A stretch of 63,793 nucleotides of DNA, filler included, from Licmophora abbreviata (Eukaryota), in NCBI GenBank assembly GCA_900291995.1. It is 9 parts of 9 records of this genome, joined end to end, with 100 filler letters (N's around TTAATTAATTAA, not from the genome) between each part and the next. Parts side by side here need not be neighbours in the genome. Positions count along the whole stretch, not along the records: positions 53,013 to 59,982 come from OLMU01000508.1; positions 60,083 to 62,110 come from OLMU01000509.1; 7 more parts are not named here. The stretch is one strand, 5' to 3'. The notes beneath the pieces were generated by a model. It was not told the origin of the DNA. It did not search any database and was given only the letters and a program-made list of their open reading frames with translations. Every line of letters starts with the position of its first letter. Position 1 is the first letter of the stretch. The translations under genes and the position numbers were made by a program. Shown piece after piece: positions 12,885-62,210 of the stretch.

Positions 12885-12984
12885 NNNNNNNNNNNNNNNN
12901 NNNNNNNNNNNNNNNNNNNNNNNNNNNNTTAATTAATTAANNNNNNNNNNNNNNNNNNNNNNNNNNNNNNNNNNNNNNNNNNNN
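12885..12984. other. Assembly spacer 1 (N44-TTAATTAATTAA-N44)
   Basis: Exact 100-nt pattern with stops in all six frames. Confidence 0.99.
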
Positions 12985-17034: not shown

Positions 17035-17134
17035 NNNNNNNNNNNNNNNNNNNNNNNNNNNNNNNNNNNNNNNNNNNNTTAATTAATTAANNNNNNNNNN
17101 NNNNNNNNNNNNNNNNNNNNNNNNNNNNNNNNNN
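17035..17134. other. Assembly spacer 2
   Basis: N44-TTAATTAATTAA-N44. Confidence 0.99.
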
Positions 17135-32120: not shown

Positions 32121-32220
32121 NNNNNNNNNNNNNNNNNNNNNNNNNNNNNNNNNNNNNNNNNNNNTTAATTAATTAANNNNNNNNNNNNNNNNNNNNNNNN
32201 NNNNNNNNNNNNNNNNNNNN
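32121..32220. other. Assembly spacer 3
   Basis: N44-TTAATTAATTAA-N44. Confidence 0.99.
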
Positions 32221-35257: not shown

Positions 35258-35357
35258 NNNNNNNNNNNNNNNNNNNNNNNNNNNNNNNNNNNNNNNNNNN
35301 NTTAATTAATTAANNNNNNNNNNNNNNNNNNNNNNNNNNNNNNNNNNNNNNNNNNNN
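35258..35357. other. Assembly spacer 4
   Basis: N44-TTAATTAATTAA-N44. Confidence 0.99.
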
Positions 35358-41449: not shown

Positions 41450-42566
41450 TCAGTCGGTCCAATCTATCCGAATAGGTCTACCGAGCAAGTTCTTTCCATT
41501 GAGCGTCGCCCCTTTTTCACATGCCTCTGTATTCCAGAACTCCACAAAACCGCTTCGCCACAGAAAAGAGTATTAGGGAATAGATTAACAGTCAGAAGGC
41601 AGGTCACCATCATGTGGCATTGACAACCCGTGTGCGCACTTACCATCCCTTGAAATCGCCACTATCCTGGTGGTGNNNNNNNNNNNNNNNNNNNNNNNNN
41701 NNNNNNNNNNNNNNNNNNNTTAATTAATTAANNNNNNNNNNNNNNNNNNNNNNNNNNNNNNNNNNNNNNNNNNNNCCATTGGCAAAGAACTTTGTAATTG
41801 TCTCGTCGTCGATATCATAGGACAAGTTGCCAATGAACAGCTTGACACAATTTTCAGGCTTGGCGCTCATAGCTTTTAAACCGGAACCGCCAGCTTGGCC
41901 ACCCGAAACGACCTTCTTCGGTGGAGGCCACACGTCTCCATCGCGGGCGGGAGCAAAATTGATCTTGATTGGTCGACCCATTAATTGCGATCCTGCCATT
42001 TTGACAGCTCCAGCAGCGTTTTCAGGCGTGTCAATCTCGCAGAAGGCCGATCCATAAAACTTTCCCGTCTCCTTGTCGGTGATCCATTTGATGTGAGTGA
42101 GCGTGCCCGGCAAGAACGAACTCAACGAGTCTTCATCTACAGCAAAAGGGAGGTTCCCTAGGAAGAGACGCGTTACACCCTGTGGATTCCCCTTGCACGG
42201 CTTGTTTGTTGCGCGCTGTACATCATGAGTCTCCTCTCCTTGGATTTTAGGCGACTCTTCCTGGACCGATTCCTCTGATCGCTTCTTTTTTGATTTCTGT
42301 GATCCATCGGCGTCATCTTTGGATTTTCGCTTCGACTTCTTAAGCTTGACCATGCCTTCTGCATTCAGTTTGATAAGTCCATCGTCTTCTAGAGACTGCA
42401 CTGCATTCTTGTACTTCTTCTTTGTGGCCTTGTCTGCGTCGTCGATCTGGAGAGACAGAAGCACCATCTTCCGTAGCTTCTTCACTTGAAGCTTTTCCGA
42501 TGCGCCGCGAAGCGTCGACAGAATCGCATTAGTCCAAACCTCGTCTCCAGTATGGTCGCTGCCCAT
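41450..42566 (-). CDS. Double-RRM (nucleolin/GAR2-like) RNA-binding protein spanning spacer 5
   Basis: RNP2 LFLGNL and LFIGNL, RNP1 FYGSAFCEI. After the gap HHQDSGDFKG-(intron)-CGFVEFWN..GRPIRIDWTD* completes RRM2. Confidence 0.88.
41676..41775. other. Assembly spacer 5
   Basis: N44-TTAATTAATTAA-N44. Confidence 0.99.
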
Positions 42567-52603: not shown

Positions 52604-54859
52604 ATGGTGGATCCGGTGTCGATGCCATTAGACTTGCCGAAGCCGCAGAGAGCGCCACACTCACGTAGGAGAACAACAGGATCCTTGTCTCCAGCTAACG
52701 CAACGAAACCAATCTCTCAGAATGATCCTCCTCAGCCTTCAAGAAGAAAGAGAGCATCAGGTCGCTTTCAATGCGCCCTGGCCATGTCCCGGGCAGAGAC
52801 AGTCCTTGTCTCCGCCACCGGCGACGTGCTTGTTTCTCGATCTCGGTCCTCACCATACGCAATCGTCGAGCATCCGATCATCTCTGGGAAGAGCGCAGCT
52901 TCAAAGGAAGATNNNNNNNNNNNNNNNNNNNNNNNNNNNNNNNNNNNNNNNNNNNNTTAATTAATTAANNNNNNNNNNNNNNNNNNNNNNNNNNNNNNNN
53001 NNNNNNNNNNNNCAACGTGGTGGAGATCGGGCGACAATTCCTTGTGCGGCATGTGTATTCCCGGAGACGACGACCCTCATTCCAGTGGCGGACTACTCGG
53101 TGGTGCGGCGCAAGTCGCAAACGAGATCGTGAAGGCAGAGAGCGAGACCAAACGGGAGGAAGATGAACGCGTTCTTCTTGAACGACAAACTGTGGAAAAG
53201 ATGTATCCTGATCTGCCATCTGATGCGGACGAGGAGTCGATACTGCCTCTTCCGAGCTTTGACTACTCACATTTCACAGAGGGCGGAAATGACATGGAAT
53301 CGATTTCTGCTCCTCGTCGACGGACGCATTCTGGGCAGCTATCACCTCTTCACGAGAATTCAATTTCGCACGGACATATCTTGGATGACGAAACGACTGA
53401 ACGACCAGCAAGGCAGCTCACGCCACCGCTTGTGATGCACGGAGTGCCAACATTCCTACCAGCATTTTCTCAGATAAGAGTGACGAAGGTATCTGCTCAT
53501 CCCCTTGGATCGCACATGCTACTCATTTCCTCTGCAGCGCTATTATTTTCTTGTGGCCTGAACGATAACGGACAGCTAGGACTCGGGCGGAAGACACCAA
53601 TTGATGGCAAAACGAAAGGTTTTGTTACTACACCTACTATCGTCACACCTCTCCTGGAGAACGGAGGGAAAGCTACCGTGTGTGCAGCCGGAGTCAATAA
53701 CTCACTAGTTGTTGTAAAGACAGAAGGTAGACGGGTGGGGAGGTTTCGTCGACTGTCACGGGCGATGACGTCGTCACTGTCCAGTGTTGACACTGTCAAA
53801 GAGAACGGAGAGCCCTATCCGTCTCGTGGTGATGCATCGACGTCGGTTTGGCACCACCAGCTATATGGTTTCGGGGGAAACGAATGTCAGAAACTAGGAC
53901 TCGTGAATACCAAAGAGAGCGCCGAGAATGATGTTCTTCTTCCTCGTCGCGTGGCGCTTCACTGCAACGTTTTCCAGGGAACGGACGACGCCAATGGGAT
54001 TTTTGCGATAGCGGCATCATCGCACCACTCAGCGGCTCTGGTAAGGCTTTCCACTGGCACCACAGAAGTGTACACTTGGGGGAATGCTGGTGATGGTGCC
54101 CTTGGTCATTGCGAGAAAGTGACGTCAGGTATTGTTCCCGTCCCAACCATCGTTCCCTCTTTGTCGACGGAATCGTCTGAAAAGGACCGTCCTGTTCAAC
54201 TTGCTGTTGGACCAGTATCGACCTTTGTTGTAACATCGGCAGGCCGATGCTTGAGCTTTGGTTCGAGCGATGGCCTTCTCGGCCACGGGCGCAATGCAAT
54301 GTATGTGGCTCAACCCAAAGAAATTGTATTTCCGTCATCGGGCCATGGTGGAACGGAGATACGAAGCGTGAGCGTAGGGGCACGCCATGCGGTTGCTATT
54401 GCCGCTGACGGGCGTGCATTCACCTGGGGCGATTCATCGCACGGGAGAACAGGCTTGGGAGGCGGTCGAGCAGAATTCTTGCCGATTACCAATGACCGAG
54501 ATCGCAGTAGAGTACACGCCAATCCAACGATCGAATACACACCTCAGCAAGTCAAGATATCCCGTCCGACTCGTGATATCGATCTCCGGAAAGTCAGCCG
54601 AAGGAGGGTGCTGTCAGACAGTCAGCTAGGCGAAGCTGTGGCATCGTGCCGACTGGACGATGGTCCTCCAAGAGCAGAGCACAAGAGCACGGATCGATTC
54701 GCAACCGCCTGTGCTGGATACGACGGCACGGTCTTCTTGACGGAGTCTGGGTCTGTACTATCTTGTGGAAAAGGTTCTGGTCGTCTTGCCCAGGGCTCAA
54801 AGACGTCAGACTCCTTGCACCCTGCAAAAGTGTTTGGAGGTCTTTACCTATGGAGATAG
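52604..54859 (+). CDS. RCC1/BLIP-II repeat protein spanning spacer 6
   Basis: SCGLNDNGQLGLG, YGFGGNECQKLG, YTWGNAGDGALG and SVGARHAVA..FTWGDSSHGRTGLG. The ORF before the gap (52604-52912) is probably its N-terminus. Confidence 0.8.
52913..53012. other. Assembly spacer 6
   Basis: N44-TTAATTAATTAA-N44. Confidence 0.99.
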
Positions 54860-55021
54860 TACTATGTGCGGTAGATAAGTTGCTAGAATGTGGCTTATGT
54901 CTGGAACGGCTACCGAATGGCTATATTTTACCGAACGGAACTGTTAGGGTTAGAAAATAGAATGTTCGCGACTTCAGTTCTCCATCGCGCATTATAGCGC
55001 GCCAGTGTTGTGTGACGCCGT

Positions 55022-55060
55022 TGATGATGCGCTGTGATGATGTGATGTTGATGTGATGTG
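55022..55060. repeat. Imperfect TGATG microsatellite-like tract
   Basis: tgatgatgcgctgtgatgatgtgatgttgatgtgatgtg upstream of the CRTISO-like gene; similar tract at ~14019-14042. Confidence 0.6.
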
Positions 55061-55174
55061 TCGCTGCATTTGTTTTGGAAATGCAGGTTTGGTTGCCCTA
55101 CCACAGGTAGCTGTCGTCAAACGCAGTGGAAAGGATATCAGTCTTTGGCAAAGATAGCCGCTCTATAGAAGACA

Positions 55175-57315
55175 ATGGCTCGCTTCTTGACCGTAGCGAC
55201 GCTGGGATTGGCCGCAATGCACCGAGCCTGGGGATTTGCTCCGATTGCGCTGTGCGATGACATCCGATGTTCATTTGCCAGATCTTTGTCGCGTCAGATC
55301 CCCCCAAGGCGTGATTTTCAACGTAGTAAAGCTACTCTGTTCTCCTCCCAAGTGGAAGAAGTGGACGTGGTGGTCGTCGGGTCGGGAGTCGGTGGTCTTT
55401 CCTGCGCTGCGCTCTCGGCAAAGTATGGCCTCAAGACGCTTTGCTTGGAGGCACACGACACCGCCGGAGGCTGCGCACACTCCTTTTCTCGGTACACTTC
55501 GGCCTCCAAGACGACCCCGTTCAAATTCGACTCGGGGCCCAGCTTAATCAGCGGCTTGTCGTCAAAAGGAACGAATCCATTGCGACAAGTTCTCGACGCC
55601 ATCGGCACGGCCGACAGCATTGATTGGCACACCTATGTGAGTTTTCTTTCCGACGTGCATGCAACCTGATCGCTGCGAAGGACTCACTGCTCTTTGATCC
55701 ATCCAGGATGGTTGGCTTATTCATGACTATGCTGACGGAAAAACGTTCAAACTCACGACGGGCAGTGGCGGTATGTTGCGTTGAGCTATGTGTCGACGCG
55801 GACGACTATGAACATACAGATCAAGTCCTAACAGTGTGTTCTTATCCACCACCGCAAATGCTTGTATAGGAGATTTCGAGAGGGCACTTGAGGAAAAGGA
55901 GGGGAGGCAATCGCGAGAGGCATTCGAGCGCTTCAAGGATAAGATGCTGGAACCGCGAGGGTTGACGGAAGCGAGTGCTTACATTCCTCCGTTCGCCCTG
56001 CGAGGCGGAGTATCGGCGGTAGCTAGTCTCGCCAGGTACACACTGAAGCTTCTGAGCATTGGTCCAAAAGGCAACCTCCTCACGGGACCGTTCACGGCCG
56101 TAATGGACCTACATGGGGTAAGAGCACGTGGACAGTAAGATGCGCGTTCAATCGATGTGATCTCACGCACTACTGATATTGTTTTGCTCTTAGCTCAAAG
56201 ACCCATTTGTGCGAAAGTGGTTTGATTACATTGCGTTCGCGCTTTCAGGTCTGGACGCAGCGCATACGCAGGCTGCTCCCGTTGCATATATGTTGAGTGA
56301 CTTGCACAAAGCAGGTGCGGTACTCGACTATCCAATGGGTGGCATGGATTCTCTAATACAAGCGCTTGTCGGAGGGATGGAAGGGCACGGCGGGGAGCTC
56401 CGTCTTAACCGTCGCGTGGTGCGCATGTTGATGGAGGAAAAGGACGGATCCGCTCATTGCACCGGTGTTGCCCTCGAGGATGGGACGACGATCAAAGCAA
56501 AGAAGGGTGTCGTCAGTAATGTACCATTATGGAATATGGCTAGGATACTGGAAGACAGCGTCGACGCTGATACATCGGAGAGTAGGATTGAGAAGGCAGT
56601 GAAGAGCATACGTGATAGAGCTGATGAAATGTGCATGACGAGGAGCTTCATGCATCTCCATCTCGGCATTCCAAACGATGGTATTGGGGAACTGGAGTGC
56701 CATCACTCAGTTTTGAATTTCGATGAGGACGTGACGGCCGAACAAAATATGGTTATCATCTCAATACCGACTGTGTTTGACCCGAGTCTGGCCCCAGAGG
56801 GCTATCACATTGTCCATGCATATACCGCAGCCTCTGATAATTTCGATGAGTGGCTACCATTTCTTGAAGGCGGCACCGACGGCGGTAAGGTTGGGTCAAA
56901 TCCGAACTCAGGTGCGGCTTCCAAATACAGTCGCGAAGATGGCTACGAACTTCTCAAAGAGCAGAAGTCTGAAGCACTTTGGCGTGCAGTCGAATGTGTA
57001 ATTCCTGACGTCCGGAAGCGTGCCAAACGAAAAGGCAGCATCGTCATGATCGGTACACCGCTGACCCATCGACGCTACAATCAACGCTTCCGCGGAACAT
57101 ACGGCCCAGCACCATCCGATGGAGCAGACGTATGGGACCTTGTGGGGGCGACAACGAAGGTGAAACGGCTGCTAGCGTGTGGCGATACCTGCTTCCCCGG
57201 GATCGGTCTTCCTGGTGTCGCTGCCTCGGGAACAATTGCAGCGAATACTCTCGTGAACGTTGGGCGGCAGATGAAACTTATCAGCTCTTTGAAACAGGAC
57301 GGCTCGCTACAGTAG
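55175..57315 (+). CDS. Plastid-targeted carotenoid isomerase (CRTISO)/phytoene-desaturase-family FAD oxidoreductase; 4 exons
   Basis: AWG|FAP presequence, VVGSGVGGL, EAHDTAGGCAH, FDSGPSL, YPMGG, SFMHLHLGI, GTPLTH..RGTYGP, CGDTCFPGIGLPGVAASG; introns start at 55637, ~55771 and 56118. Confidence 0.9.
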
Positions 57316-57391
57316 TAGATAGATGGAACGTCTAAGATCTAGTGCAGGTGCAATCATCCAAGACTCCACCGCCAATATTACAATGGAAATT

Positions 57392-58180
57392 TCACACGTT
57401 GCTCTTCATTCCGTTCGCGATACATCGATTGACAACACCAAGAAGGTGTTTGTTCTCTAGCGCGGCGCAGACTCTTTCCTTGTCTGCGAGCTGCTTGTTG
57501 ACGGCATGTTCGCTGGCGTGAGTTCCCGACTGGATCTTTACCGTAACTTTGAAGCGAGGAGGCATGGAGCGAAGCAACTTGACTCGAATACACAATCCAA
57601 TAAGCGTGGCCATGCTACAATGAGGGATAGTCGGTGTGAAACGCACTTCGACAGTAGAGAGCGCCGACCGACCCTTGTTGTCGTTCACCGTGATGTGGTC
57701 CTCGTTTACGACATTCAACTGCTCCAAGGTGAGCGGATGCTCCGGATCCTGAATATTTCGAATGATATCGAAGATTTCGTCAGTAGTTACATCTTCATGT
57801 GACTGGTGCTGCGGGGGCTTTGCCGCCCGATCTTGCAGGGCAGCATCAGTGACAAAGCTCGGTCGACTAAGAGCTTGCCCGCGAGACGACGGTATCACCA
57901 TTCCGGCTTTTCGTAGCAAAGAAACGCCATCTGGATTGACAGCGGCCACATCTGTCAGTGCATGAAATACTGCGCGGTCTTCTGCTGTCTGCATCGGGCT
58001 GAAACCACCACTTGGGACAACGCCGGTCGACACGAATGCGTCCTTGTCGCCGCTGCAGTACGCGAAGTTGAACCTTTCAAGCTCCTCAAATCCAAGCGAC
58101 TTTTTTCCACCGCGCGTCCGCTTCTTCTGCACGGCATGTACGACCGGGTTGGCATTTTCCTTTACAGAACCTTCTAGCAT
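57392..58180 (-). CDS. CIAO2B: Cytosolic Fe-S assembly component CIA2/MIP18 (FAM96B-like)
   Basis: [70 protein letters not shown]. Confidence 0.9.
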
Positions 58181-58480
58181 CGTCGTATCCGCTCCTCCCA
58201 GTAATGATACGTCGACCAGCGGGGCTTGATTGTTGTGATCTGATGAAGTTTTGATGATTTTCCCTCGCGCGCTGCCGCGGGCCTCATACACTCTCTGTAT
58301 CAGCTGCGCGATCACAGAAGTTACAGCTCTCACCAAAATGGCGCTACAGAGCTACTATCCATTCTCTCTCTCCGTATCTGGTACCGGTACGGGGAAAGGT
58401 CTACAAACAAATAAAGACATGGCCTTTACACCAGTATGCAATACATCTCTCAGAAAGGTTAGGAAACACTACTTGTATCT

Positions 58481-61400
58481 CTAGCGAGCGAATCTGCTTG
58501 TGGTCCGCGAGCTAGGTCCAAGGCCTCCGCCGAGAGACGCGGGGTCCGGGTCTCCGCCGGGCGGACCGCCAATGCCCATGAGACTAATGGCTTCAATGTC
58601 GACATCTTGAGAAGGATTGTTTTGAAAGAGATTGAGATTGTTGAGCATGCCGGAGACGACGTCCATGTCAGCGACGCCGGTGTTGTCTTCATCTCCATCG
58701 TCAACGAGCGCAAACAAACGACCACGACGACTACTCTTCCGAGACTCGCCGGGAAAGGACGCACCCAGAGTAGAGCCGCCAATCGCGCTAAACTCTGACG
58801 GACCTGTTTCCTGTCGTTGGGGGCGAGGGGATAGACCTTCGATCGGGGCGGTGTATCCACTGGGAGATATCACAGGAGGGTTCGTCGTGCCGTTCCTATC
58901 CGAGGGGTAGCCGCCCGGCGGGACGGCGGGTATAACCGATGGAGTCGGCGACATCACAGCAACGCCCATTCCCTGGATCATGCTGATAACTGATCTTTCG
59001 TTGAGAGTAAATCGTGAGTGGCCTGCATCGTTCTGCATGACGACGAAAAGGCTCGCCGTGGGGCACAACACCGAGGTCCCGGGGCTCCGGCGAGACGCAA
59101 ACGAATGCTGCCTACCAGGAAGCACCTCGGCAAATCTGACATACGCACCATGTCGACTATTCAGGCGAGGGTCGAGCATGGTAAGATCGTTGATGGTTGG
59201 AGGACGATTCAACTCGCGGAAGCAATCGCTATGAAGAACCAAAACGCATGACACTGGAAGGCGTTTCGCGTCCGCTGCCTCCAACAAGTCGATCAGCTTG
59301 CGGACGTAGAGAGAAGACATCATGTAATCAACCGGCGGGAACACCGACAGAGATGTCCCACGAGCTAGAAAAGCAGTCTCACCGCCTCCGTTTTCCTTGC
59401 CAAACGGCGGCAGGCCACCAAAGACCGAGTCGGTGTCAGGGAAACGCCCGCAGAACACATTGCTACCAAAGGTAGAAAAAGGATCTGACCAGAGCTCGGC
59501 GGACACGTTTGCCTCCCTTGCGAAAGATCCCTGAGCGGTGGACAAGAGACCATAGTCCATCGTTGTCCCTGCTGCAAGCGCTCCCATAATGTCATGACGC
59601 ATTTTGGCACTGAAGATCGATGTGAGGATCTTCCCGGGTGTACCTGTGTAGCGTTCTCTCAGTCTGGCGAAGGTCGATGGAGGCATATTGACCTGAGCAC
59701 GATTGGCCCAGTTGACAACGACAACCTGTCCAAGCCCATTCCCCGCCATTTCAGATACCGTCAATCCAAGCATAGAGTCTGTCCATTCAGGAGGAAGCTG
59801 TGCGTTCAATCTTCCGACGATTTCGATCAGAGACTTCGACTGACTGAGGCACAAGCGAGCGAGAGCCGCTCCAGCTTCTTTCAGTGCCTCCATGCTCACC
59901 ATGCTTGCGTTGTTTGCATGTCCCGCCCCCTTCCGACTCTCGGCAATGAGCTGCCGCTGAAAGAAAGAAGTGAGGAGATCGGNNNNNNNNNNNNNNNNNN
60001 NNNNNNNNNNNNNNNNNNNNNNNNNNTTAATTAATTAANNNNNNNNNNNNNNNNNNNNNNNNNNNNNNNNNNNNNNNNNNNNCAACGAACGGAGAACTAT
60101 CGTGTGCCGCACGAACGACCCATCGACACAAAACAGCCTTTAGCCACGTGTCCGCGACGACTCGAAGAGGGTCAGAGGAGTCCGGTTGGCTACGGGCTTG
60201 AGCACATCGTTGTATAATCTCGGAAAGTTTCTCCTGTCTGTACAGCGACACGGCGGGAACCTCGACAGGCAAGGAGATGGGTAGCATGCCACCATTCACT
60301 ACGCGACCGATATCAGCCGGCACAGAATAGAGGAGACGATCCTGTGGAAGACTCTCCAGGGAGGAAACAGAGCTTCTTTCATCGGAGTGGCCAACACGCG
60401 CTATTCTCGTTGATGAGCCGGATCCACTAGGTGTCATCGCCAATCCTCGCTCCTCTTCGGATGTAGCCCTGGAAGGCGACTGAGCCACCGAGCTGTGAGA
60501 AGAATTCGGGGCGAGAGACGGCGCACTACGTGCCGATGGAGTTGTGCTCTTCGCTTCCCAGCCTCTTGTCTTCGTGAAAGATCCGCCACGGCTGGAACCT
60601 GGAGTGCCGGGACTGCGGGCCGACTTCAGCGCTGGACTCTCAATCGGAGGAGATCCGTCACGTGCTAGCTGAGCAGATTTCTTCGTAGGTTTGCTCCTTG
60701 ATCGCCTGGAGTTCCCCAAAGGTGAGGACACCTGTTTCTCAGCTGCTTCAAGCTTATCCAACTGCAGGCGTTCCGCCTCCCGCTTCTGTCGTTCCTTCTC
60801 GTCTTTCTCCTTCCGTTTCTTGAACACTTGCTCTCGCTCCGCCGCTTCACGATGCCGCTGCTCCCTTGCTCGCTCCTCGCGTTCTTTTCGCTCATTTTCT
60901 TCCTGGAGTTTTCGCTTACGCTCCCGTTCATTGTCTTCCTGTTGCACTTTTTCTCGTTTCTCTTGCTCTTCTTTCAATCGCAGCTGGCGCTCGCGTTCTT
61001 TCTTCTTCTTTTTCTTCGCTCGTTTGGAGCTAGCAACGGCCTCGTCTTTCTGCGCTTTCGTTTCTTCTTGTTCGAGCTCCTTTAGAAGCGCTTCCTCGGC
61101 AGCGCGTGCTTGTGCCTCTGCGGACTCTTTGCTGGCTTTCGGTTTCTTCTTTTTCTTCCCCGAAGGCGACGGTTTTGTGTTTCCGTTTTCGTCGTGCAGA
61201 GCAGAGTTTGATTTGTCACTATCGCTCTCGTCGGTCTCGTCGTCAGTACTCAAGCTCATCAAACCATCCCGTTGCATTTGTTTAATGCGAAGACTGATCA
61301 ACAAACGGGCGCGTTGGACTTTCTTTCTATCTCGAGAGCAGCGCGGGATGCTAGCTTTATACTCCGTCACCATCTCCACAGCTGTGTCGATCATATCTTG

Positions 61401-62110
61401 TTCGACAAGAATAGACAGCGCAGTGTCACCCTTCTTTGTCGTGACAGTATGGTCCGCTCCGTGTCGAAGGAGCAACTCGACCGTTTCAGGGAGTCCCTTT
61501 GTCGCGGCCTGCAGCAGAGCACTTAGCGTCGGATCATCTTCTTCCGTCGGCGCGCCTGCCTCGAGCAAAAGTCGGACCGCGTCATCGTGACCCTTGTACG
61601 CGGCAATGCTAAGTGGGGACCATCCCGTATCCGTACACTTGCAAGGATCGGCACCCGCATCCAACAGTGCCTCAACAGCTTTCGCCTGTCCGTGATTCGC
61701 TGCAGTCAACAATGGTGTCTCTCGCCACTTGTTCAATGCATGCACATCCGCGCCAGCACTTAGCAACTGCTTCGCCGCTGAAAGATGACCCGACTTTGAT
61801 CCAGCGCACGCCTTGTGTAGCGGCGTGCTACTATCCTCCGTAACGCAAACGTTCACGGGAGCACTTTCTTTCAGAAGCAAAGCAACAATATCCTCATACC
61901 CCTGAAGAAAAGGGTAAACAACTCAACATTGTGAGCTGCACTTCGTTATATGCACGGCGCCTATTGCATCTGCATCTGCATATCGCGACATACCTTATGA
62001 GCCGCAAAAGTCAGCGCACTCCATCCAGCTTCGCTGCACAGACTTGGATCAGCTCCATGTCTCAGTAGCGCTTCGACAGCCGTCGTGTGACCATTGTTTG
62101 CTGCAATAAG
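58481..62110 (-). CDS. Ankyrin-repeat / coiled-coil / PCIF1(CAPAM)-like methyltransferase-domain protein, spans spacer 7, 5' end in spacer 8
   Basis: Ankyrin repeats (TPLHKAC, TPLLTAANHG, SPLSIAAYKGH), E/K/R coiled coil, then RWVVR..; ELWSDPF..FCGRFPDTDSVFGG..PF..SLSVFPPV..PVSCVLVL..LFVVMQNDAG in PCIF1 order. Frame is open on both sides of the gap. Intron ~61902-61993. Confidence 0.72.
59983..60082. other. Assembly spacer 7
   Basis: N44-TTAATTAATTAA-N44. Confidence 0.99.
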
Positions 62111-62210
62111 NNNNNNNNNNNNNNNNNNNNNNNNNNNNNNNNNNNNNNNNNNNNTTAATTAATTAANNNNNNNNNNNNNNNNNNNNNNNNNNNNNNNNNN
62201 NNNNNNNNNN
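62111..62210. other. Assembly spacer 8
   Basis: N44-TTAATTAATTAA-N44. Confidence 0.99.

Follow-up and report, generated by a model that had tools for sequence, protein, structure and literature searches.

To our knowledge, PCIF1 (also called CAPAM) is the only known writer of cap-adjacent N6,2′-O-dimethyladenosine (m6Am), and we know of few studies of it outside animals. Animal PCIF1 has an N-terminal WW domain that binds the phosphorylated C-terminal domain (CTD) of RNA polymerase II (Pol II). Here we examine a locus of the diatom Licmophora abbreviata whose product combines ankyrin repeats with a PCIF1-like core in which the catalytic motif is replaced. The locus occupies the minus strand at positions 58481-62110 of a 63,793-base stretch of DNA (hereafter, the window), where it is read from two open reading frames (ORFs) on either side of an artificial spacer. 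We consider it probable that this is a gap-split nuclear diatom gene whose PCIF1-like core no longer makes m6Am and now has a role in binding or scaffolding without catalysis.

Methyltransferase folds that have lost their catalytic motif are already familiar. METTL14, the pseudo-methyltransferase partner of METTL3 and an RNA-binding scaffold, carries EPPL where METTL3 has DPPW, and it resembles the diatom core in having a degenerate x-P-P-hydrophobic motif within an intact methyltransferase fold; however, it belongs to the MT-A70 clade and forms an obligate heterodimer with its active paralogue. Within the PCIF1 lineage, Drosophila Pcif1 is reported to be catalytically dead and yet to regulate gene expression (PMC10158991), and like the diatom family it represents a homologue that was retained with a damaged NPPF motif, in its case in a non-catalytic gene-regulatory role (PMC10158991, PMC9479742). 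The fly protein is described as altering the Phe alone (to His) while retaining its WW domain and its binding to the Pol II CTD (PMC9479742), whereas in the diatom family the Asn and the aromatic residue are both altered and the N-terminal modules are wholly different. DIRS1-type retrotransposons also encode polyproteins with PCIF1-derived domains, described as probably inactive (PMC4738411). After flies and DIRS1 elements, the diatom family is a third example of a PCIF1 fold that has persisted with a damaged motif. It is a diatom-wide, PCIF1-derived probable pseudo-methyltransferase, and its domain context, with MATH, ankyrin repeats and a charged helix where PCIF1 has WW, is new.

Such a family offers a natural experiment on the roles of the PCIF1 fold beyond methylation, and it provides a clean, conserved and testable case of a probable pseudo-methyltransferase in an ecologically important group. 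For diatom biology, it adds a conserved and probably nuclear regulator, and it points to a conserved partner of the MATH-ankyrin region that is worth identifying.

A PCIF1-like core whose catalytic motif is replaced

The ORF on the seventh contig of the window encodes 499 residues (P0002), and the original prediction had assigned its product to the PCIF1 family from five sequence blocks occurring in order. We found that the Pfam family PF12237 (PCIF1_WW) matched residues 118-249 of P0002 (E = 1.5e-6), just short of its gathering score, which 15 of the 35 family members that we scanned passed, with up to 55.9 bits. A profile of 61 sequences, which took in two canonical-like outgroup sequences (P0086 and P0092), was searched against PDB sequences and matched zebrafish CAPAM (6irx_A, E = 5.7e-20) and human PCIF1 (6irv_A, E = 3e-16), aligning all five blocks to both proteins as had been proposed. 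P0002 also matched P0092, a canonical-type relative with an NPPY motif, in a pairwise comparison over 194 residues (E = 2e-16). The blocks shared with PCIF1/CAPAM are E-x-[FW]-[AS]-x-P, F-x-D-x-D-x-x-F-G-[GS], G-S before strand 4, P-L-S-F and L-Q-N, although the identity of the diatom proteins to the solved CAPAM structures (human 6IRV/6IRW and zebrafish 6IRX-6IS0, all PF12237) is only 15-19%.

The AlphaFold2 model of P0002 had a predicted local distance difference test score (pLDDT) above 90 across residues 1-345. Foldseek returned six matches to it at E <= 0.001, all of them CAPAM/PCIF1 (5.8e-15 to 7.9e-13), and the next match stood at E = 3e-3. We also modeled P0003, a complete orthologue, which was ordered from approximately residue 68 to residue 488 and included helices at 72-93 and 106-122 with pLDDT above 90. 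Residues 62-477 of this model superposed on residues 189-668 of human PCIF1 with a Z score of 29.9 and a root-mean-square deviation (rmsd) of 3.9 Å over 362 residues (VIA-align). Across the CAPAM entries, the whole core superposed with Z scores of 24.8-30.4 (rmsd 3.6-3.9 Å, 353-362 residues), and the next fold, KsgA, reached a Z score of 7.8. All 30 ESM Atlas feature matches for residues 1-345 of P0002 were PF12237 clusters. Because the Pfam, profile, Foldseek, VIA-align and Atlas matches agree, we consider homology to the whole crystallized CAPAM core, helical domain included, to be secure, and the family assignment originally made for this C-terminal domain therefore stands.

The NPPF loop is described as the catalytic loop of CAPAM (PMC8287941), and the same source lists D/N-P-P-F/W/Y for all characterized m6A/m6Am RNA methyltransferases. 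In the profile alignment, human SGSFEANPPF, whose NPPF is N553-F556, lies opposite ggSvvvlpPl in the family, and the window reads SLSVFPPV, with FPPV at exactly the place (59341-59330, read on the minus strand) that the original prediction had given. Using a hidden Markov model (HMM) of the core, we aligned every protein fetched, which yielded 221 domain rows. The Asn position is occupied in 203 of them, by L (111), M (30), F (21), V (19), I (9), T (5), H (3) and, in a single row each, S, A, Y, C and N. The single N belongs to the outgroup P0092 and the three H to the P0086 cluster, which reads HPPA. Neither Asn nor Asp opens the motif in any of the 199 family rows, a set that includes near-identical cluster members and so represents fewer independent lineages; the altered motif noted for the window thus proved general in the family.

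At the aromatic position, the family has mostly L (90), P (40), F (28) and M (12), while the second Pro is retained in 187 rows and an acidic residue (D or E) directly follows the motif in 200 of 205. Replacement thus affects NPPF at its Asn and its aromatic residue alike, giving FPPV here and a hydrophobic-x-P-hydrophobic pattern across the family. Given that the N553A substitution alone is reported to inactivate human PCIF1 in vitro (PMC9178792), it is likely by analogy that adenine-N6 methylation has been lost, and the core is probably catalytically inactive.

We next consider what the core has kept. Residues that are near-invariant in the family include QRQxI in the first helix encoded by contig 7, as well as G36, C43, D67, R109, S243-F244 (PLSF), R271, H291 and Q315-N316 (LQND). 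Several near-invariant residues are shared with PCIF1, among them E161, which lies opposite the E of human ECFASP, and D183-x-x-F186-G187-G188, which lies opposite DTDGYFGS. Conservation reaches 95% at E161, 98% at D183, 99% at F186, 96% at both G187 and G188, 100% at Q315 and 89% at N316.

We then compared the positions that, in human PCIF1, are reported to contact the cap (R235, E558, W588, P591 and P592) or to form part of the substrate-binding loop (H616 and Y618) (PMC13290413). The offset to human numbering was derived by hand from the profile and checked at N553, W588, P591/P592, F479, P494, P612 and N638; the register of the cap residues comes from this sequence alignment rather than from superposed coordinates, and R235 is not covered by the aligned part of the profile. 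At the W588 position, F occurs in 154 and L in 46 of 201 family rows, and a Pro (P260) stands near P591/P592 in 157 of 202. A near-invariant D or E followed by N or S lies opposite C557/E558. Opposite H616, H291 is H in 197 of 206 rows, and opposite Y618, position 293 is F or Y in 203 of 206. Together with the aromatic residue that most rows have opposite W588, these would be points of likeness to PCIF1/CAPAM. Judged from this alignment, the pocket appears to have been remodeled rather than erased.

The core keeps its fold and many pocket-lining residues but lacks the two side chains on which the adenine-N6 motif depends. We propose that it would serve as a binding or scaffold module, possibly one to which a nucleotide or an RNA 5′ end can still bind. 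Through the very strongly conserved MATH-ankyrin region described below, this core would be tied to a protein partner that is itself conserved and probably nuclear.

Alternatively, the core may be an active S-adenosylmethionine (SAM)-dependent enzyme with a remodeled motif IV and an altered substrate or chemistry, acting on another atom or base of RNA, on a protein, or on a small molecule. The residues shared with PCIF1 around the presumed cofactor site are near-invariant (E161 to N316), an acidic residue almost always follows the motif, H291 and the aromatic residue at 293 are conserved opposite two residues of the human substrate-binding loop, and confidence in the predicted fold is very high. 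In contrast, both functional side chains of [DN]PP[FYW] are absent from every family row; the N553A substitution alone is reported to inactivate human PCIF1 (PMC9178792), and the complete motif is listed for every characterized m6A/m6Am RNA methyltransferase (PMC8287941). Moreover, the mean identity of the core is 44% compared with 88-90% in the MATH-ankyrin region, a difference that fits relaxed catalytic constraint. We regard an active enzyme as unlikely but, given that the pocket seems remodeled and not erased, we keep it as an alternative of real weight.

A further possibility, and one that we hold to be quite improbable, is that the core still binds SAM together with an RNA 5′ end and is delivered by its almost invariant MATH-ankyrin region to a conserved nuclear partner, where it would methylate a non-adenine target or sense the state of SAM or the cap. 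If so, diatoms would possess a 5′-end or transcription-coupled regulatory pathway of their own, with no counterpart in animals or plants.

Several observations weigh against our preferred reading of a gap-split gene with a non-catalytic core. P0002 falls below the Pfam gathering threshold (28.3 bits versus 31.1), so the HMM search with PCIF1_WW that had been suggested gave a match, although one below the family's own cutoff. A single-sequence phmmer search of P0002 against PDB sequences missed PCIF1, its sole match being at chance level (E = 0.88). The lineages behind the 199 motif rows are fewer than the rows themselves. Given the near-invariant residues shared with PCIF1 in the presumed cofactor region (E161, D183, FGG and QN), the core may still bind a cofactor and hence retain some catalysis. 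Finally, the adjacency of the two contigs on which the gene lies is deduced from homologues rather than observed, and the metagenome contigs that match the locus stop short of the break.

Two observations concern PCIF1-like proteins outside the diatom family. P0086, a metagenome-derived protein of 742 residues, joins a RanBP2-type zinc finger and a DCD domain to a PF12237 domain (104.7 bits) that has HPPA in place of NPPF. Among the three best PF12237 clusters in the ESM Atlas, two are labeled mostly Nucleocytoviricota and the third mostly Chlorophyta, and giant viruses therefore appear to carry PCIF1-like genes.

Continuity of the gene across the assembly break

The window consists of nine contigs joined end to end by eight spacers of the form N44-TTAATTAATTAA-N44 and thus contains 16 runs of 44 N. 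For a feature that extends over a spacer, outside evidence is therefore required that the flanking contigs are adjacent. The G+C content is approximately 50% all along the window. The two ORFs in question lie on contigs 7 and 8 and face each other across spacer 7. We sought relatives of P0002 among 1.84 billion representative proteins and obtained 93 at E <= 1e-3, 59 of which had E <= 1e-30; many of them are 1,000-1,900 residues long and match in their C-terminal part.

All nine full-length homologues compared by tblastn were colinear with the locus over 62110-61994, 61904-60084 and 59980-58571, and each left only 10-16 residues unmatched at the break. In P0004 (1,153 residues), for example, residues 2-632 align with the product of the contig 8 ORF (P0001) at 55% identity over 652 alignment columns, ending RWIVRAAHGSAPFL, and the match to P0002 begins at residue 644. 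P0003 is likewise split, with the contig 8 product matching up to residue 128 and P0002 from residue 139. P0004 was the top homologue of the nine for either half, and the ranking of the homologues was similar for both. Across the break, the family consensus reads ...YRWxxRAxHxxxxxxDPxIPSWxDxxxLxxFFQRQ..., and the stretch missing at the gap corresponds to DPxIPSWxDxxx.

Given that residues 62-477 of the P0003 model superpose on human PCIF1 189-668, the last ~60 residues encoded by contig 8 form the opening helices of a domain whose remainder is encoded by contig 7. The original prediction had noted that the end of this upstream ORF resembles the helical domain of PCIF1, and the model agrees. 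Because nine homologues are colinear and the break lies inside a folded domain, we conclude that the two minus-strand ORFs flanking spacer 7 belong to one gene, with ~10-11 codons lost in the gap and with the adjacency of the contigs deduced from homologues; the earlier suggestion of one gene split by a small gap was thus borne out. Positions 58481-62110 would then represent the 3′ three quarters of one nuclear gene, interrupted by an assembly gap of ~30 nucleotides (nt) and with its 5′ part cut off by a contig end.

It is also conceivable that the two ORFs do not form one gene, either because the contigs are not adjacent or because they derive from two paralogues or haplotypes, in which case the fusion would be an artifact of contig order. 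The window does join contigs with artificial spacers, and no bridging read or contig was present among the matching metagenome contigs (161-268 nt). However, the ORFs lie on the same strand and in the right order, they are open at their facing edges, and the partial codons left there, of one and two bases, could belong to the same frame. The break interrupts a folded domain of which each piece supplies only a part, all nine full-length homologues cross it, and the same protein is the best of the nine for each half. Even if two alleles were involved, the architecture of the gene would be unchanged. We therefore consider separate genes very unlikely.

Marine metagenome DNA provided a second view of the locus. 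Five of the nine runs listed contain part of the window (share <=0.16; three studies), and no RNA run was among them. On 58481-59982, the matches were three identical contigs that did not include the contig edge (Table 1) and had no loose ends, and none bridged the break. The finding of identical short contigs in three marine studies indicates that several marine samples contain, at low depth, this organism or one very closely related to it.

Architecture and conservation of the diatom family

The complete architecture, as seen in full-length homologues, consists of a MATH domain, approximately ten ankyrin repeats, a charged helix, a disordered Ser-rich linker, the PCIF1-like core and a tail with a conserved motif. 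In Pfam scans of 35 family members, 26 had ankyrin matches, 8 an N-terminal MATH match (two of them partial) and 28 a PF12237 match at E <= 1e-3. Nine members lacking ankyrins (789-911 residues) start in or after the charged region, and we interpret them as truncated predictions. When only longer proteins were searched, 176 relatives were obtained at E <= 1e-5; among the best 120 of these, nearly all matched ankyrin families and most matched PF12237, and those of ~1,380-1,800 residues also had MATH. The closest relative is 57% identical to P0002.

The window gene lacks its first ~430 codons, as contig 8 ends at 62110, and the remaining ankyrins and the MATH domain are expected by homology. When nine full-length homologues served as tblastn queries, no other part of the window matched their MATH domain or N-terminal ankyrins. 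We found no WW domain in any of the 37 scanned homologues, nor in P0001, P0002 or the upstream exon, the N-terminus of the window's own protein being missing. The original prediction held that ankyrins replace the WW domain of PCIF1. The presence of ankyrins and the absence of WW domains agree with this, but the complete homologues also have a MATH domain before the ankyrins, so the replacement is broader than had been proposed.

Every member with an organism name is a diatom. These are Nitzschia inconspicua, Nitzschia sp. Nitz4, Cylindrotheca closterium, Cylindrotheca fusiformis, Seminavis robusta, Stauroneis constricta, Attheya septentrionalis, Detonula confervacea and two Bacillariaceae entries from metagenome-assembled genomes (MAGs), and the family spans three classes (Bacillariophyceae, Biddulphiophyceae and Thalassiosirophyceae). 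MMETSP transcripts labeled 'type:complete' encode the full architecture, which indicates that it is transcribed as one mRNA in other diatoms. We also looked for a canonical diatom PCIF1 with P0092 as the query and obtained 13 relatives, none of which carried a taxon name.

Conservation differs strongly among the parts of the protein. Expressed as mean pairwise identity among 37 full-length members, with the MATH-ankyrin part taken as residues 204-675 of P0012 (to which the ankyrin part at 61278-62110 corresponds in the window), the MATH domain reaches 90% (minimum 81%) and the ankyrin region 88% (minimum 81%). The PCIF1-like core stands at 44% (minimum 29%), the charged helix at 50% and the linker at 19%, and the C-terminal motif is 71% identical compared with 28% for the tail that flanks it. 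The high identity of the MATH-ankyrin part suggests an invariant binding partner, and a near-frozen MATH-ankyrin region combined with a drifting core fits relaxed catalytic constraint together with such a partner.

An origin as the inactive PCIF1-like domain of a DIRS1-type retrotransposon, or as a decaying pseudogene, has in its favor that DIRS1 polyproteins carry comparable domains (PMC4738411), but we consider it extremely unlikely, as Pfam scans detected no reverse transcriptase, RNase H or tyrosine recombinase in P0001, P0002 or 37 homologues, the frames are intact over 1,112 codons, and the protein is that of a conserved cellular multidomain gene, with the same MATH-ankyrin-PCIF1-like architecture in three diatom classes, strongly conserved family-specific residues and complete MMETSP transcripts.

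Database records call the family members 'ankyrin repeat protein', 'MATH domain-containing protein' or 'ankyrin 3, node of Ranvier', and one JGI record reads 'Ankyrin repeats (3 copies)/Phosphorylated CTD interacting factor 1 WW domain'. Under the ankyrin and MATH labels, the relationship to PCIF1 is easy to miss. The domain combination is thus visible in public data yet uncharacterized, and our literature search found no published description of a diatom MATH-ankyrin-PCIF1-like family.

Layout of the locus and its surroundings

The features of the locus are listed in Table 1. The ORF on contig 8 is open at both contig edges and that on contig 7 at its upper edge, and the frames run uninterrupted across 1,112 codons. 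The upstream exon is 87-90% identical to residues 429-467 of P0012 and residues 475-513 of P0029 (tblastn). Its splicing to the second exon yields WSALTFAAHK|GYEDIVALLL, which is continuous in the homologue P0012 as WSALTFAAHKGYDDIVTLLL, and the tblastn segments abut at the splice. The ankyrin part is 82-86% identical to P0021, P0039 and P0043 over 61922/61904-61263 (tblastn), and a comparison with the PDB gave generic matches to consensus-like ankyrins and designed ankyrin repeat proteins (DARPins), with nothing more specific.

Table 1. Features of the locus and of the window that holds it (minus strand features are read from high to low positions)
Feature	Position	Strand	Basis or remark
Spacers 1-4	12885-12984, 17035-17134, 32121-32220, 35258-35357		
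Spacers 5-8	41676-41775, 52913-53012, 59983-60082, 62111-62210		
Contig 8	60083-62110		
Upstream exon, 39 codons, ankyrin repeat	61994-62110	-	Ank families, E 4e-6 to 1.5e-4
GT...AG intron, 92 nt	61902-61993	-	...GCT CAT AAG|gtatgt...ttcttcag|GGG TAT GAG
Second exon	61901 down to contig edge 60084	-	stop-free
Ankyrin repeats and C-terminal capping helix (P0001 ~8-215)	61278-61901	-	Ank 1.1e-26, Ank_2 2.2e-26
Glu/Lys/Arg-rich charged segment with poly-Lys runs (P0001 255-400)	60723-61160	-	composition
Ser/Pro/Gly/Arg-rich linker, poorly conserved (P0001 401-545)	60288-60722	-	composition; 19% identity
First helices of the PCIF1-like helical domain (P0001 ~550-613, ends ...RWVVRAAHDSSPFV)	60084-60275	-	homology and model
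Assembly break	59981-60083	.	artificial spacer plus 1+2 leftover partial-codon bases; ~10-11 codons missing
Contig 7	53013-59982		
Contig 7 ORF (P0002)	58484-59980	-	499 residues
Rest of helical domain and Rossmann-type methyltransferase-fold domain (P0002 1-345)	58946-59980	-	PF12237, profile, Foldseek
Motif IV equivalent FPPV, at the NPPF position	59330-59341	-	alignment
Conserved C-terminal motif in the disordered tail (P0002 418-470: RRGRLFALVDDG...VVSGMLNNLNLFQ...DVDIEAISLMGIG)	58571-58729	-	
Stop codon TAG	58481-58483	-	protein end ...SRFAR, family consensus ...GRFG
Identical metagenome contigs	58792-58952, 59578-59793, 59582-59849		

The original prediction described the protein as an ankyrin-coiled-coil protein. 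The ankyrins are confirmed by Pfam, but the segment taken for a coiled coil is better described as a charged one: over its 146 residues, E, K and R make up 59%, and hydrophobic residues (LIVMFWY) only 9.6%. It is probably a single charged helix or spacer with basic runs resembling nuclear-localization signals, rather than a heptad coiled coil. Downstream of the linker, the C-terminal end of P0001 is 52% identical to residues 66-128 of P0003.

The conserved motif in the tail is acidic-hydrophobic and has the consensus RRGRLFxLVDDG...VSGMLxNL...FQ...DVDIEAISLMGIG, with near-invariant columns at R421, F423, L425, G444, F452, D461-I465 and G469, and it had no Pfam match. The tail has a pLDDT below 50, and the AlphaFold2 models of both P0002 and P0003 leave it off the core. 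A complex prediction pairing the tail motif (P0012 1515-1576) with the MATH-ankyrin region (P0012 200-680) returned no answer, scoring 0.00 in both runs with the alignment unused, and counts neither way.

Downstream of the PCIF1-like gene, a same-strand frame of 319 codons (57392-58351) lies only ~130 nt from its stop codon. The C-terminal part of this frame matches FeS_assembly_P (PF01883, E = 4.7e-10), and we take it to encode a MIP18/CIA2-like cytosolic iron-sulfur assembly protein.

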